DNA from: an uncultured delta proteobacterium
GTDB taxonomy: Bacteria > Myxococcota > Myxococcia > SLRQ01
DNA: 64,000 nucleotides
Direction of reading: 5' to 3'
Assembly: GCA_963727485.1 (NCBI GenBank)
Contig: CAVSGM010000002.1
Coordinates: forward strand, 1,823,779-1,887,778
Shown here: positions 6,691 to 14,487 of the stretch, in pieces
How positions within the stretch are numbered: the stretch's first letter is position 1
Layout: each line of letters begins with the position of its first letter
The notes under the pieces: model-generated
Seen by the model: the letters and a program-made list of their open reading frames with translations, nothing else
Databases searched by the model: none
What the model was told of the DNA's origin: nothing
Program-made: the position numbers and the translations under genes

Positions 6691-7131
6691 TTGACCGACG
6701 ACCCCTCCGTACCCGAGAGCCCCCCCGCCGAGCCCACCTCGGGCCGGCGACGATTTCTCCGGGAGGGCGCGGGGATGCTGGCCCTCGGGGCCCTCGCCGT
6801 GGCGCCCGGCGGCCGCGACCGCGCCCTCGACGCCCTCCGGGGCCGGGTTCGCACCGTGCGCCTGGGCAGCGCCCGGCCCCACCCGGCGCCCGGTGTCAGC
6901 GCCCGGCGCGCCGGTGACGAGCTGGTGGTCTCCATCCCCGGCGCCGATCCCGGCGTCGCCCTCAACGAGACCGCCGCCCAGGTGTTCCTCGCCTGCGACG
7001 GCCGGCGCACCGTCGACGCCATCGCCGCCTCGCTCTGTCGGCGCTACCGCGTGTCGCCGGCGCGGGCCCGCCGCGACGCGGGGGCGGTGGTCTCGGCGCT
7101 GACGCGCGCCGGGTGCCTCGTCCTCGGCTGA
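6691..7131 (+). CDS. PqqD/RRE family protein with N-terminal twin-arginine (Tat-like) signal
   Basis: SGRRRFLREGAGMLALGALAV followed by the PqqD pattern LNETAAQVFLACDGRRTVDAIAASLCRRYRVS...DAGAVVSALTRAGCL. Confidence 0.8.
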   Translation: MTDDPSVPESPPAEPTSGRRRFLREGAGMLALGALAVAPGGRDRALDALRGRVRTVRLGSARPHPAPGVSARRAGDELVVSIPGADPGVALNETAAQVFLACDGRRTVDAIAASLCRRYRVSPARARRDAGAVVSALTRAGCLVLG

Positions 7132-7158
7132 TCCCCGGCGTCCCCGCTCCGGGGCCGC

Positions 7159-7369
7159 TCAGGGCCGGCTGGGGGCGCAGGGTCCCGACGGGCGAGCAGA
7201 TCTGGGGGTGGCAGGCGTAGGGTCCGCAGCTCGAGGACGGCGCCGCCCGGGGGATGGGGATTTTGATCGACCGGATCCGAGGGCGGACGTACTTCTTGAC
7301 CCCGTCGACGATCGCCTCCTCGGCGGCCTCCAGGGCCTCGTCCTCGATGTCGTTGCGGTCGTCGCTCAT
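7159..7369 (-). CDS. putative RiPP precursor peptide (69 aa after removing one G at 7180-7182)
   Basis: Acidic leader, KKYVRPRI motif, core SSSCGPYACHPQICSPVGT(CAPSRP*). As sequenced the ORF runs to 6962 and overlaps the convergent PqqD gene; a 1-nt correction gives TGA at 7159-7161 and a fourth CxP unit. Confidence 0.65.
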
Positions 7370-7375
7370 GGTCCG

Positions 7376-9085
7376 CTACCAGGCGGTGGACCAGGTCAGG
7401 CGCCAGCCCGCCGGGAACCGCTCGAGCCAGTACTCTACCACCTGCGTGGTCTCCCGGTCGCCCTGGTCGGCGGTGCGCAGGGCGTGGACCAGGACCTCGG
7501 GGTAGTTGCGGGTGCCGGTGGTGTAGACCGAGAGGATCCGGGTGTGGACGGTGGCGTCGGTGTCGGTCCGGCCGGTGGCGATCCGGGCCCGGGCGGCGTC
7601 GTCGAGGGCGTCGCAGTAGAAGCCGTCCATGGTCGCCCGGTAGGCCTCCGGGTCCCGGGCGTTCACCGCGGCGTCGGCGTCGTGGATCACCCGGGCGATG
7701 GCCGCGCGGTCGGCGTCGGGGACCGGGGTGGGCGGCTGGGAGAGGTAGGGGGCCAGGGCGTCCTTCCAGGCGGCGCGGAAGGCGTCGAGGCCCTCCCCGA
7801 CCACGTGCTGGAGCAGGTGGTCCATCGCCCGGGCCAGGGAGGGGCCGTCGCTGACCTGGTCGCCGAGGGTGTCGACCAGGGTCCACCCGTGCCAGGTCAC
7901 CGCGGCGGCGCGCCACAGCTCCAGGAGCTTCGCCCGGCCGTAGCGGGAGACGAAGAGGCTCACGAACGAGCCGTCCCGACCGTAGTTGCGGCCATAGACG
8001 TCGCTGTCCTCGAAACCGTAGCGGTAGGTCGCGTTCTCCTCGCCGGCGACCAGGTCGTCGGCGTAGGCCTGGTGGCGGTCCCGGCCCGAGCCGTCGAGGT
8101 AGACCGCGAGCCCCTCGTCGAGAAACGGCAGGTGGTCGGTCTTCCCGTCGACGGCGGTGGCGAGGACGTGGGTGAGCTCGTGGCCGAAGTGGTGGCGCTC
8201 GTAGCTGTCGTCGCCTTGGAGGTAGAGGACGTCGACCTCGTGCTTCCAGGGGAAGGCCTGGCCCACGCTGTAGCCGTGGGCGAAGGCGGCCATGCGGTTG
8301 GGCGAGAGGACCACGGTGATCCGCGGGCGGGTGGTCAGGCCCAGGAACTCGCTGATGCGGTCGTAGGCCCGCTGGCGATCCTGGAAGATGGGGTCGAGGT
8401 CGGCGGCGGCGGCGGTGCCCGGGAGGTAGCGCAGGTCGAAGGGGCCGCGCTCGGTGTCCTGGTAGGCGACGCCCGCGTAGGTGGGGACGTCGGCGCAGAG
8501 GACCGGCGCGATCGGGCCGCCCGCGTCGCCGCCGGCGCCGGGGCCGTTGTCGTTGCCCGCGGTGCCGGGGCCGTTGTCGCTGCCCGCGGCCCCCTGGCCG
8601 TTGCCGTTGCCGTTGCCGAGGCCGCTGTCCGGGCCGGCGCCGGTGCCGCCGGTGTCGCCGTTGCCTCCGGCGGTGCCGTTGCCTCCGGCGGTGCCGTTGC
8701 CTCCGGCGGTGCCGCCCGCGCTGCCGCTGGCGCTCCCGCCCTGGTTGGCGCTTCCGTCGTCCTCGCTGCCGGTGCGCGGCCCGGCGCCCGGGACGCCGTC
8801 GAGGCCTCGAAGGTGCAGGCCCCCCGGGAGGCCCGGACGGACGGCGCGCCCAGGCCGGGTCCGCCAGCCGGGGAGGGCGCCGGGGCGGGTGGCCAGGGAC
8901 GCCACCGGGACGCGCAGCGCGCTCGGCGTCGCCACCGGGCGGGTCGCCGCCGCCGGGGCGCCGCCGGCCGTCGCCGGGCTGGCGGCGGTCGTGGTCGGGG
9001 GCGCATCGGTGGGCGGCGCCGCCGGGGCGGTGCAGGCGGCGGCGAGGAGGACGAAGGCGAGGGACGGGGGGGCGAGTCGGCGCAT
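7376..9085 (-). CDS. lipoprotein zinc metallopeptidase (gluzincin/peptidase MA-like) with Gly/Asn-rich linker
   Basis: Lipobox LLAAAC; HFGHELTHVL followed by FLDEGLAVY (HExxH...E); stop 6 bp upstream of the precursor start. Confidence 0.75.
   Translation of the reverse strand: MRRLAPPSLAFVLLAAACTAPAAPPTDAPPTTTAASPATAGGAPAAATRPVATPSALRVPVASLATRPGALPGWRTRPGRAVRPGLPGGLHLRGLDGVPGAGPRTGSEDDGSANQGGSASGSAGGTAGGNGTAGGNGTAGGNGDTGGTGAGPDSGLGNGNGNGQGAAGSDNGPGTAGNDNGPGAGGDAGGPIAPVLCADVPTYAGVAYQDTERGPFDLRYLPGTAAAADLDPIFQDRQRAYDRISEFLGLTTRPRITVVLSPNRMAAFAHGYSVGQAFPWKHEVDVLYLQGDDSYERHHFGHELTHVLATAVDGKTDHLPFLDEGLAVYLDGSGRDRHQAYADDLVAGEENATYRYGFEDSDVYGRNYGRDGSFVSLFVSRYGRAKLLELWRAAAVTWHGWTLVDTLGDQVSDGPSLARAMDHLLQHVVGEGLDAFRAAWKDALAPYLSQPPTPVPDADRAAIARVIHDADAAVNARDPEAYRATMDGFYCDALDDAARARIATGRTDTDATVHTRILSVYTTGTRNYPEVLVHALRTADQGDRETTQVVEYWLERFPAGWRLTWSTAW
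8657..8714. repeat. 18-bp tandem repeat (about 3.2 copies) encoding TAGGNG
   Basis: GCCGTTGCCTCCGGCGGT x3 read directly. Confidence 0.9.
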
Positions 9086-9261: not shown

Positions 9262-11524
9262 ATGGCCCGGGCTTCCCTTCCCATCCTCGGCACGGGGGCG
9301 GTGGCACCAGCGGCGCCCCGGCCCCTGCGGTTCGCCTGGCTGGAGCTGACCCACCGCTGCAACCTCCAGTGCGACCAGTGCTACACCAACAGCACTCCCC
9401 GCACGCCCCTGGGGAGCCTGCCCACCGAGCGCTGGCACCGCCTCCTCGAGGAGATCGTCGCCGCCGGGGGGAAGACGGTGCAGTTCACCGGCGGTGAGGC
9501 CACCACCCACCCGGACCTGGTCCCGCTCCTCGAGCACGCCGCCGGGCTCGGCCTCGCCGTCGAGCTGTTCACCAACGCCACCCGCCTCGACGACGCCCTG
9601 ATTCGAGCGCCTCGCCACCCTCGGGGTGGCGGTGGCCACCTCGCTGCACAGCCACGAGGCGGCGGCCCACGACGCCATCACCCGGACCCCCGGGAGCCAC
9701 GCCCTCACCGTCGACGCCATCCGCAGGCTGGTCGCCCGGGGGATCGAGGTCCGGGTCGCCGGGGTGCTCATGGCCGGCAACGCCGACCACGGCCCGGCCA
9801 CCGAGGCCCTCATCCGGCGCCTCGGCGTCCTCACCCCGTTCAAGACCGACCCGGTGCGCCCCACCGGCCGGGGGCGCAAGGCCGAGTCCCCGGCCGAGGT
9901 GGCCAGCTGCACCGTGTGCGACGACGGGACCTTCCAGGCGATGCACACCGATCCCGCGGGCCCGGCGCCGTCGACCTGCTGGGACGGGCGCATCGCCGTG
10001 AGCCCCCGGGGCGAGGTCTACCCCTGCATCTTCAGCCGCGGGGCGAAGGTGGGCAGCGTCGCCGACACCCCGCTCCCCCAGGTCCTCGCCCGCGGGCCCC
10101 TCGCCGGGCTCTGGGCCCTGACCACCGACGACGTCCCCGAGTGCCGGGACTGCGACCGGAAGGGCGTGTGCTTCGACTGCCGGGCCCTGCCCCTCACCGC
10201 CCTCGGCGACGTCACCGCCAAGAACCCCCGGTGCGACTACGTGCCCCCGGCCAGGCGCCCCAGGCGCCCGCGCCCCGAGGCGGCGAGGGTGCGCCCGGGT
10301 CTCCTGGGCCGGGACCTGGCCGGCGAGCGGCTCCTGGTCGACGCCGCCACCGCCCGGCTCCACCGCCTCGACGCCGGGGCCGCGGCGATCCTCGACGCCC
10401 TGGCCGCCGGCGCGTCGGAGGCCGCCCTCGCCGCGGGCCTCACCCGGCGCTTCGGCCTCGCCCCGGACGAGGCGGCCTCGGAGATCGCCACCGTCGCCGA
10501 CGGCCTCTGGGACGCGGGGCTCCTGGTGGACCCCGCGGGCCGGGACGTCACCGGGGACCGGGTCCTCGCCGGCGTCGCCCCGCCACCGGTGCCCGACGCC
10601 CTGGGCCTGGCCGCCGGCGCCGCGGACCCGGCGGCCGGGCGCGCCGTCGCGGACACCCCCGCCGCCGAGGTCCCCCGGCGCGCTCTCCTCGGCCTCCTCG
10701 GGCGCACCGTGGCCCTCGCCGCCGACGCCGCCGCCTGGGCCGAGCTCGAGGCCCTGCTGGCCCCCCTGGCCGCCGACCCCGGGGCCACCCCCGAGGCCAC
10801 CATCTCGGTGGTCTCCCGCCGCTCCGCCCCCCACCTCGGGGCGCTCCACCACGTCCTGGTCGACGGCCGGCAGGTCCGGGCGGTGCGGACCCCCGGCGCC
10901 CTGCGCTCGGCGGTCGAGGAGGTGCTGTGCACCCTCGCCGCCGAGGGCCAGGGCGACCTGCGCCTCCACGCGGCGGTCCTGGTGGGCCCCGCCGGGGCGG
11001 TGCTCATCCCCGGGGCCTCTGGGGCGGGCAAGAGCCTGCTCGCCCTCGCCGGGGTCGCCGCGGGCCTCGGCTACGGCACCGACGAGGCGGCGCGGATCCC
11101 GCTGGTCGGCGAGGTGGTGGTCGACGCGCTCCCCAAGCCGGTGACCGTGAAGGCCGCGGGCCGGCCCTGGGTCCCCCCGGCGCTGACGGCCCGGTGGATC
11201 CCCCCGGACGTCGCCGACCCCGACGACTACGCCTGGGTGCCGCTGGTCGGCAGCGCCCCGGCGCCGGTGGTGGCGGTGGTCCTCCCGGATTGCTCCGGCG
11301 CCACCGAGGGCCTCGCCCCCTGCGAGGCCGGCGACGCCGCCGAGGCCCTCCTCGCCGGGGTCTTCAACCTCGGCGGGGCGGGGGTCGCCGCGGGCCTCGA
11401 GGCGGTGTGCCGCCTGGTCGAGGGCGCGGCCTGCCTCCGCCTCGACACCCGGGACCTCCCGGCCGCCGGGGCGCGCCTCGCCGAGCGCCTCGGCCAAGGC
11501 GCGGCCCGGGGCACCGGCACCTGA
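9262..11524 (+). CDS. radical SAM/SPASM enzyme fused to PqqD/RRE and HPr-kinase-like domains (one extra T at 9600-9604)
   Basis: CNLQCDQC at 9358-9381, TGGEA, FTNA; SPASM CWDG...GEVYPC...CRDCDRKGVCFDC...[23 protein letters not shown]...LTRRFGL...LWDAGLL; kinase LHAAV...GASGAGKS...GTDE. Confidence 0.85.
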
Positions 11525-11537
11525 GCTTCGCCGGGCG

Positions 11538-13165
<1,628 letters not shown>

Positions 13166-13356
13166 GGGGGCCTCCTCGGTTGCAGGTTCGGGGGCGCAAG
13201 ATACACATCTGCCTGCGGTGATCCACCCCGCGCGCGTGCCGCGGTGCGTCGCGCGGCGGCCTCGGTGGCGCGTCGCCGCGGCGGGGCCGAGGCCGCGGCC
13301 CGCGGCTTGCCGCCGGGGTCCCGGTGGCTAGAAGGGCGCCTGAGGGGGAACGCGAG

Positions 13357-14487
13357 ATGGACACGCGACGCTGGCTGGGCCTCGCTCTTTCGATCGCCAC
13401 GCTGACCGCCGGCTGCGGGAAGCCCGCCGAGCTCGCGGTGGGCACCTACAATGCCGGCCTCGCCACCGGCTATGTGCCCTGGGCGGCACAGCGGGCGCCG
13501 AAGGTCGCCTCCGGGCTCGCGGCCCAGGACCTCGACGTCCTCTGCGTCCAGGAGGTGTGGTCGGCCGACGACGTCGCCCGGGTGAAGGCGGCCACCACAG
13601 ACCGCTACGGCGAGGCGGTCTTCCTCGATCCGGATCCCGGGAGCGCCGCCGCCCTCGAGCCCGCGTGCACCGGCGCCGAGCTCGACCCCCTCCAGAGCTG
13701 CGCCGAGGCCAGCTGCGCCGGGGTCCCGGTGGACCAGCTCGCCGGCTGCGTCCTCGACCAGTGCGGCGTCGAGTTCGCCGCGGTCTCCCAGAGCTGCTCC
13801 ACCTGCCTCGCCGCCAACATCGGCGCCAGCTTCTCGGAGATCCGCACCGCCTGCACCACCGGCGGCTCCGGCAGCTACGCCTTCGGCGGGAGCTTCGGGA
13901 TCGGCCTGCTCACCGGCCTCCCGGTGCAGGCCACCAGCCACGTGGTCCTCGACTCCACCTACAACCGCCGGGCGGTGATCCACGCCCGCCTCGACGCCGG
14001 CGCCCTCGGCGAGGTCGACGTCTACTGCACCCACCTCTCGGCGATCTTCTCCAACATCCCCTACCCGGGCGAGGGGAGCTGGGAGGCGGAGCAGGGGGCG
14101 CAGATCCAGGCGATGCACGCCTTCGTCTCGCGCACCGCCGGCGCCGGCAACCCGGTGCTCGTCCTCGGCGATCTCAACTGCGGCCCGAAGGCCACCTCGG
14201 CCAGCGCCGAGGCCGAGGCGAACTACCAGGCGGCCCTGGCCCCGGGCTACGCCGACCCCTACGCCGCCACCTCCGGGGCCACCTGCACCTTCTGCCAGGA
14301 CAACCCCCTGGTGGGCGCCTCGGGGACCTCGGTGCTCATCGACCACGTCCTGGTCCGGGGCGGGCTGAAGGCGGTGGACAGCGCCCGGATGCTCACCGAC
14401 GAGGTGACCTACGAGGCCGATGGCGCGACCCGGCAGACCCCCCGCTCCGATCACTACGGCCTGAAGGTGGTGCTCCAGGCGAAGTAG
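13357..14487 (+). CDS. endonuclease/exonuclease/phosphatase family lipoprotein with Cys-rich insert
   Basis: Lipobox LTAGC; GTYNAG, DVLCVQEV, THL, LGDLN, IDHVLV, SDHYG. Confidence 0.88.
   Translation: MDTRRWLGLALSIATLTAGCGKPAELAVGTYNAGLATGYVPWAAQRAPKVASGLAAQDLDVLCVQEVWSADDVARVKAATTDRYGEAVFLDPDPGSAAALEPACTGAELDPLQSCAEASCAGVPVDQLAGCVLDQCGVEFAAVSQSCSTCLAANIGASFSEIRTACTTGGSGSYAFGGSFGIGLLTGLPVQATSHVVLDSTYNRRAVIHARLDAGALGEVDVYCTHLSAIFSNIPYPGEGSWEAEQGAQIQAMHAFVSRTAGAGNPVLVLGDLNCGPKATSASAEAEANYQAALAPGYADPYAATSGATCTFCQDNPLVGASGTSVLIDHVLVRGGLKAVDSARMLTDEVTYEADGATRQTPRSDHYGLKVVLQAK

Follow-up and report, generated by a model that had tools for sequence, protein, structure and literature searches.

Sactipeptide systems (i.e., SkfB/SkfA, StsB/StsA, and GggB/GggA of streptosactin) use an RRE-dependent radical SAM (rSAM) enzyme with a SPASM/Twitch domain. 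Streptosactin contains unnested rings in which the Cys at position i is joined to the alpha-carbon at i+3, and sactisynthases use an open cluster site, as described in PMC8172795 and PMC8326336, respectively. Ranthipeptide enzymes, including that of the CrpC/CrpA pair (PMC13692751), are also rSAM/SPASM proteins with an RRE that act on repeated Cys motifs. HprK-like kinases occur in other systems. According to PMC13381572, the kinase of the linear polyphosphorylated peptide (LPP) system polyphosphorylates Ser3 of a core behind a YxxP leader, and the kinases of lasso peptides act on a C-terminal Ser (PMC9266682). An rSAM/SPASM, PqqD, and HprK-like protein kit is found in the SynChlorMet and HPr-rel-A cassettes (TIGR04250/04251 and TIGR04352/04353).

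The window analyzed here, a 64,000-nucleotide stretch from an uncultured delta proteobacterium of the Myxococcota, contains a locus that comprises, from left to right, a PilZ gene, a stand-alone RRE gene (plus strand), a precursor gene (minus), a metallopeptidase gene (minus), and a divergent fusion enzyme gene (plus) (Table 1). In its mode of action, this pathway would come closest to that of a sactipeptide to which an LPP-type kinase has been added. The rSAM CxxxCxxC motif, the SPASM/Twitch cysteines, and the RRE of the fusion enzyme are all present, and the His, Walker A, and TDE motifs of its kinase domain are intact.

Table 1 Features of the locus (positions in the window)
Feature	Position	Strand	Basis
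Stand-alone RRE (PqqD, E 1.7e-12); N-terminal twin-arginine signal-like segment, motif at ~6742-6759	6691..7131	+	Domain match, conservation
Precursor peptide gene, 69 aa without the extra base at 7187	7159..7369	-	ORF, codon GC, read contigs, homologs
Core with four Cys-x-Pro units (C48, C53, C58, C64)	7159..7228	-	Repaired reading
One-base insertion error of the assembly	7187..7187		Missing from one X1 contig and one X3 contig
Ser45-Ser47, predicted kinase site right before the first Cys	7229..7237	-	Ser conservation
YxxPxI leader motif (Y27-I32), predicted RRE-binding site	7274..7291	-	Conservation, consensus in PMC13381572, leader model
Putative lipoprotein metallopeptidase, lipobox-like LAAAC, HELTH	7376..9085	-	Peptidase_MA_2 match weak, below cut-off
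rSAM-SPASM-RRE-HprK-like kinase fusion, 753 aa without the extra base at 9602	9262..11524	+	Domains, intact homologs
Fusion enzyme, CxxxCxxC	9358..9381	+	
Fusion enzyme, SPASM	~9983..10234	+	
Fusion enzyme, RRE	~10331..10525	+	
Fusion enzyme, kinase motifs	~10934..11155	+	
One-base insertion error splitting the enzyme gene	9602..9602		Missing from single contigs of X1, X2, and X4

The locus departs from each of the described systems. Sactipeptide systems lack the array of 2 to 10 Cys-x-Pro (CxP) units, the fused kinase, the C-terminal RRE, the Tat-like signals, and the tail-fused forms of the present family, and sactipeptide maturase models score far below their cut-offs with a fusion homolog (P0004; 58 versus 300 for SkfB, 63 versus 850 for AlbA, and 80 versus 625 for StsB). 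The LPP system and the PadeK paeninodin-type lasso kinases resemble the locus in their YxxPx[V/I] leader, RRE, HprK-like kinase, and Ser near the core N terminus (PMC13381572 and PMC9266682). LPP has an SpI peptidase and an MsbA-like pump and no rSAM enzyme, whereas in the window the kinase is fused to an rSAM enzyme and the core is a Cys-Pro repeat; among the seven locus proteins scanned, there was no SpI-type leader peptidase, MsbA-like pump, or NTP transferase, an rSAM enzyme being present instead. The lasso kinases target a C-terminal Ser (PMC9266682), whereas the Ser of the window precursor precedes the first Cys, and the macrolactam cyclase and B2 peptidase of lasso peptides are absent among the same seven proteins. 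Models of the SynChlorMet and HPr-rel-A cassettes score far below cut-off (59 versus 400 for ScmE, 58 versus 400 for ScmF, and 51 versus 200 for HprK_rel_A), and none of the ScmE, ScmF, ScmD, ScmC, and ScmA models exceeds its cut-off. No NCBIfam family reaches its cut-off for the catalytic role of the enzyme, for which generic Pfam domain models alone pass, and no NCBIfam model matches any of seven precursors tested. A literature search conducted largely outside subscription journals found no description of a CxP rSAM-kinase family, as judged by titles and the first lines of abstracts, and the window family is absent among the displayed rows of one supplement table of PMC10288494.

The precursor gene is disguised by a frameshift. 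Its minus-strand ORF from the ATG at 7369 reads as quoted in the initial annotation, has the GC content of a coding frame at the three codon positions (0.62/0.51/0.95), and is the single match in the whole 5.55-Mb genome to a YxxP followed by three closely spaced CxP units. The initial annotation attributed the frameshift to one extra base in the GGG at 7180-7182 and called for the reads over 7178-7184 to be inspected. We compared short-read contigs of four runs (X1 to X4), of which X1 and X3 come from two studies and X2 and X4 have no contig over 7187. Contigs of X1 (6956-7595; 1 mismatch, 1 gap, depth 4.2) and X3 (7140-7641; 7 mismatches, 1 gap, depth 2.6) both have one base fewer, the absent one being at 7187, and a synonymous change at 7262 is common to the two; both are of low depth over the site, and X1 may be the source sample. 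The extra base is thereby confirmed, but its site lies about 5 bases from the proposed one, and a repair within the GGG was dropped. The frameshift is an assembly error, as seen in low-depth contigs from two studies.

Reading through 7187 yields the claimed 69 aa, with CxP units at C48, C53, C58, and C64. Residues 62-63 are Gly-Pro, not the Gly-Thr given earlier (i.e., Pro63); placing the extra base one off from 7187 would alter residue 61 and leave residues 62-64 unaffected. The C terminus of the homolog in genome G002 has the same Gly-Pro-Cys-x-Pro pattern as the repaired precursor. As anticipated, the repair removes the 170-bp overlap of the unrepaired frame with the convergent RRE gene and leaves a 27-bp gap. 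The hidden 69-aa CxP precursor is a real gene. A single-sequence search with the peptide found P0001 alone, a near-identical copy with a different frameshift.

The second single-base error splits the enzyme gene. Contigs of X2 and X4 bridge the site at 9602 by more than 31 bases and that of X1 by 24, and intact fusion homologs exist (P0004, P0005, and the homolog in G003). The start codon of the stand-alone RRE (TTG 6691) was assigned from conservation in three loci. Downstream of the enzyme, on the minus strand of the window (11538-13445), a P5C dehydrogenase-like gene is split over two frames, probably by another assembly indel.

We found the enzyme in two of the four other genomes of the source's family (G002 and G003). 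Both keep the PilZ gene, the stand-alone RRE, and a convergent precursor with four (G002) or six (G003) CxP units; in G002, the enzyme and the precursor lie on two separate short contigs. Y27, P30, R33, S45, and three CxP units are invariant in all three family precursors (i.e., those of the window, G002, and G003). An ortholog of the peptidase is present in G002, and the window query found none in G003, G001, or G004. In G003, a second rSAM gene (L012, 7085-8635) starts at the stop of the fusion enzyme; with this gene present and the peptidase absent, the product of G003 may receive another modification.

Across 401 Myxococcota genomes, the enzyme was matched at E<=1e-35 in 11, of which 8 have a CxP precursor (the window genome, G002, G003, and five further Myxococcota); the other three (G310, G319, and G353) lack a CxP array and branch apart in the enzyme tree. 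Four genomes (G129, G151, G349, and G120) encode the enzyme, RRE, and kinase as separate genes, hereafter the split form, and two of these split loci (G349 and G120) include a nucleotidyltransferase (NTP transferase), a gene in common with LPP and missing from the window locus. In G354, a CxP precursor is present and no kinase was seen within 8.5 kb. As a natural control, the leader and a kinase gene are retained in two genomes (G259 and G374), of which G259 also has an RRE; neither genome has a CxP array or an enzyme match at E<=1e-35. The leader thus accompanies the RRE and kinase, and the CxP array accompanies the rSAM enzyme. A search of G259, G374, and G419 with P0206, run without a positive control, gave no match.

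A profile of five split-type precursors retrieved 68 proteins, all unnamed or "hypothetical" except for one stray DUF label; the set includes a few of the query peptides and was analyzed as sequences, apart from gene context. They carry 2 to 10 CxP units each, spaced mostly 5 to 7 residues apart, and 319 of their 338 core Cys residues are in CxP. The distance from the leader Tyr to the first Cys has a mode of 22, versus 21, 19, and 21 in the window family. Scans of metagenomes (4 loci, all distant) and genome contigs (51 loci, 1 close) found no credible CxP precursor at the distant loci. Atlas searches gave unnamed clusters with weak recognition scores, and cluster look-ups returned no useful names. 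This is an unnamed peptide family across uncultured myxobacteria.

Several other loci were encountered. Tat-leader peptides with an HprK-like gene, lacking an rSAM gene and CxP units (L098, 1447-1680; L099, 1429-1635), represent LPP-like systems in Myxococcota. Other YxxP-leader, Cys-containing precursor candidates lie near more distant rSAM/SPASM genes (L077, 3621-3845; L079, 487-678, with an HprK-like gene also nearby) and form a separate family. A His-Gly-Ser repeat precursor on the minus strand of contig C2 of G000 (~1555400-1555750), amid seven rSAM matches at 1524824-1563108, resembles a His-Xaa-Ser system. Another stretch of C2 with a CxP-like repeat was rejected as the wrong strand of a His-Gly-Ser repeat gene.

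The match of the fused RRE to two RREs of lasso systems (TfuB1 and TbiB1), together with the invariance of Y27, P30, and three CxP units in all three family precursors, upholds the proposal of a precursor with a YxxP RRE-binding leader. From the RRE class and the conservation of the motif, the fused RRE would very probably bind this leader. For the Cys residues, a role as cross-link donors is the best inference, and each Cys would probably form a short, unnested thioether ring. Among the acceptors, the backbone alpha-carbon three residues on appears most likely, if tentatively so, with Pro shaping the turn as in the i to i+3 rings of streptosactin; Pro itself would be the alternative, so that the invariant Pro would be either a turn-former or the acceptor.

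By sequence, the nearest solved structure in the PDB is the sactisynthase SkfB (5.8e-21 and 1.1e-28), which is also the best fold match to the predicted model of a fused-tail relative (1.4e-13). At the six catalytic-proximity positions defined in PMC10288494, all five fusion enzymes have Y,T,F,S,I,F. In the alignment, the corresponding residues of SkfB are Y,T,F,S,Q,L; those of StsB are Y,T,I,S,K,L and those of the ranthisynthase CteB are F,F,T,S,H,Q (the latter two from PMC10288494). The fusion profile shares four of six residues with SkfB, three with StsB, and one with CteB; positions 5 and 6 match no characterized enzyme compared. This profile would tentatively favor chemistry at an alpha-carbon. 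The +1 and +3 positions of CxP accept 16 and 20 residue types, Gly included, a tolerance that suits a backbone acceptor. Counting against the thioether reading, the open cluster site could be occupied in the fusion enzymes by an additional Cys or CxxC located upstream.

The near invariance of Pro at +2 (319/338) is also what a chemical acceptor would show, and the Cys might instead form a ranthionine, with its bond going to a carbon other than the alpha-carbon, whether in the Pro ring or in the side chain at +3. We consider this unlikely. CrpC makes ranthionines on Cys repeats (PMC13692751), and Asn and Asp are the commonest residues at +3 (84 and 34 cases in precursors; 20 and 40 in tails), but +3 takes 20 residue types, with Gly in 21 cases, and is Y, Q, V, and S in the window. 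A conserved acidic acceptor is lacking; no Asp, Glu, Asn, or Thr is conserved at a fixed offset from Cys. The proximity profile is nearer to SkfB and StsB than to CteB, and the PapB model reaches 48 to 51 bits against a cut-off of 340 for two relatives. Unlike in ranthipeptide systems, the substrate is a short peptide or the enzyme's own tail.

The target motif of anaerobic sulfatase maturases (anSMEs), which are also SPASM rSAM enzymes, is CxPxR, opening with the CxP of the present family, and their catalytic Asp follows a SPASM Cys. The last CxP unit of the window and G002 precursors fits CxPxR, and at +4 of the last CxP, Arg occurs more often than any other residue (14/68), as would suit oxidation of the Cys at C-beta to formylglycine or a thioaldehyde-derived ring. 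This alternative is very improbable: only 22 of 333 CxP units overall have Arg at +4, Ile or Val stands where anSMEs have the catalytic Asp, the anSME match (7.8e-11) is far weaker than that to SkfB (1.1e-28), and the substrate is a repeat peptide rather than a sulfatase.

Cys-Pro arrays resemble metal-binding tracts. This likeness would suit a reading in which the Cys residues remain free or pair as disulfides for metal binding, with the enzyme working at another site (e.g., by epimerizing a backbone alpha-carbon), as would the presence of the epimerase EpeE among the fold neighbors and the disorder of the CxP tail in the model (pLDDT ~40). It is nevertheless quite unlikely, in that CxP arrays are absent where the enzyme is absent and even Cys numbers show no bias (38/68, p 0.40), which makes obligate disulfide pairing unlikely.

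We identified a C-terminal tail of at least three CxP units in 22 of 152 enzyme relatives, in which 148 of 155 tail Cys residues are in CxP, and such tails also occur on plasmid enzymes of Streptomyces, Amycolatopsis, Rhizobium, and Paraburkholderia. Repeats in this position represent the substrate motif fused to the enzyme. In the model of a fused-tail enzyme, the disordered tail (pLDDT ~40) carries no docking information. FastTree grouped 26 of the 27 enzymes with tails and 7 of the 8 linked to precursors in one clade (support 0.972). With 73 of 216 rows, IQ-TREE did not reproduce this clade (5 changes; present in 0% of bootstrap trees) and left the deep nodes open. We accordingly do not claim a single clade of all CxP-linked enzymes, or a single origin, only relatedness and a shared motif. 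P0041 (RRE-rSAM-SPASM; 527 aa), whose last 70 residues hold 11 CxP units, lies outside the main tailed group, and from its position, tail fusion may have arisen more than once. On Streptomyces plasmids, two CxP-tail rSAM genes (L085, 2462-4525; L086, 2459-4560) lie directly upstream of a protein-L-isoaspartate methyltransferase (PIMT-type) gene; as their tails have Asp/Asn, a second tail modification is possible.

The initial annotation had taken several Ser residues (the SSS run, S59, and S67) as kinase targets. For the run, this is in line with conservation, with Ser at -3 from the first Cys in all three family precursors and at -1 in 63 of the 68 relatives (Thr in 3). S59 is not invariant across the family, S67 is without a counterpart in G002 or G003, and both were dropped as general kinase sites. 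The conservation of serine points to the LPP pattern, with S45-S47 as the predicted kinase site, and the HprK-like domain would quite probably (poly)phosphorylate the Ser that precedes the first Cys, in the manner of LppK acting on Ser3 of the LPP core. The likely product would be a string of small thioether rings plus phospho-Ser within S45-S47.

Under a TATFIND-like rule, a Tat signal is a twin-Arg motif followed by an uncharged run of at least 13 residues. This rule called Tat-like signals in 47 of 2,674 genome ORFs as background. Among precursors, it called 55 of the 68 of split type versus none of the three of the window family; among stand-alone RREs, it called all three of the window family versus none of three from split systems, a pattern that rests on three loci. 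TatC is encoded in all five genomes. Since the family precursors lack a signal and the separate RRE has one, piggy-back export is suggested. The stand-alone RRE would tentatively bind the peptide once it is finished and serve as its carrier through Tat, after which the lipoprotein peptidase, encoded directly upstream of the precursor and a candidate leader peptidase, would remove the leader outside the cell. The product would likely be a surface or secreted peptide.

For the export step, the N-terminal segment of the RRE may instead stay uncleaved and anchor the protein in the membrane, keeping the peptide there for the peptidase or some other exporter, a serious contender short of being probable. 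An Arg-rich stretch follows the hydrophobic segment in all three RREs, and no Pfam or NCBIfam Tat-signal model matches the Tat-like segments. Two RREs, moreover, coexist in LPP/lasso loci without an export role (PMC13381572). Against the anchor, the twin-Arg motif is kept in all three RREs and occurs on the RRE exactly where the precursor has none, and a transporter gene was not seen among the flanking ORFs by reading. The G002 segment, the only one of the three RRE signals to resemble a precursor-type signal (those of the window and G003 do not), scores 18.5, versus a median of 19.0 for precursor signals and a best background of 0.3. The simplest reading is that the peptide would leave piggy-back through Tat and lose its leader to the lipoprotein peptidase; an RRE anchored in the membrane has roughly the same likelihood.

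A model of the stand-alone RRE with the leader scored 0.45 versus 0.00 for the best control, with 92% agreement of contacts between runs and a partner pLDDT of 51-52. Of the solved pairs, 116/157 reach the mark applied, as do 2/215 of the mismatched ones, and likeness to solved RRE-leader complexes may explain the score; the model lends weak support to leader binding by the stand-alone RRE. Among the 68 precursors, 17 have a lipobox-like Cys after the hydrophobic stretch (e.g., P0156, P0166, P0169, and P0174), as does L090 (7307-7549); this subgroup suggests membrane-anchored lipopeptide products. A small-x-Ala site precedes Ser in 43 of the 51 without such a Cys.

The precursor hidden by the error belongs to a real, undescribed rSAM-kinase peptide family; its chemistry and export are predictions. 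We lean slightly toward the explanation as a whole, in which the leader would be bound, the Cys residues cross-linked, Ser45-47 phosphorylated by the fusion enzyme, and the peptide carried through Tat by the separate RRE. Two single-base assembly errors (7187 and 9602) hide the whole pathway from annotation. With one 753-aa enzyme and one 69-aa peptide, the locus is a compact, testable entry to an unnamed rSAM peptide family, and it connects this family with short, anonymous "radical SAM proteins" that are encoded on Streptomyces and Amycolatopsis plasmids and bear Cys-Pro tails; these proteins may be self-modifying. A wider and more doubtful suggestion is that Cys-x-Pro "bead-string" thioether peptides make up a large class not yet described, in which a new Cys-to-Pro cross-link may occur, and that this class has three forms: a precursor with a Tat signal, a self-modified enzyme tail, and a signal-less precursor hitch-hiking via Tat on an export-chaperone RRE. 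An acceptor at or next to Pro could be new chemistry, and if the RRE is a Tat carrier, this would be a new role for the RRE domain and a usable export tool.
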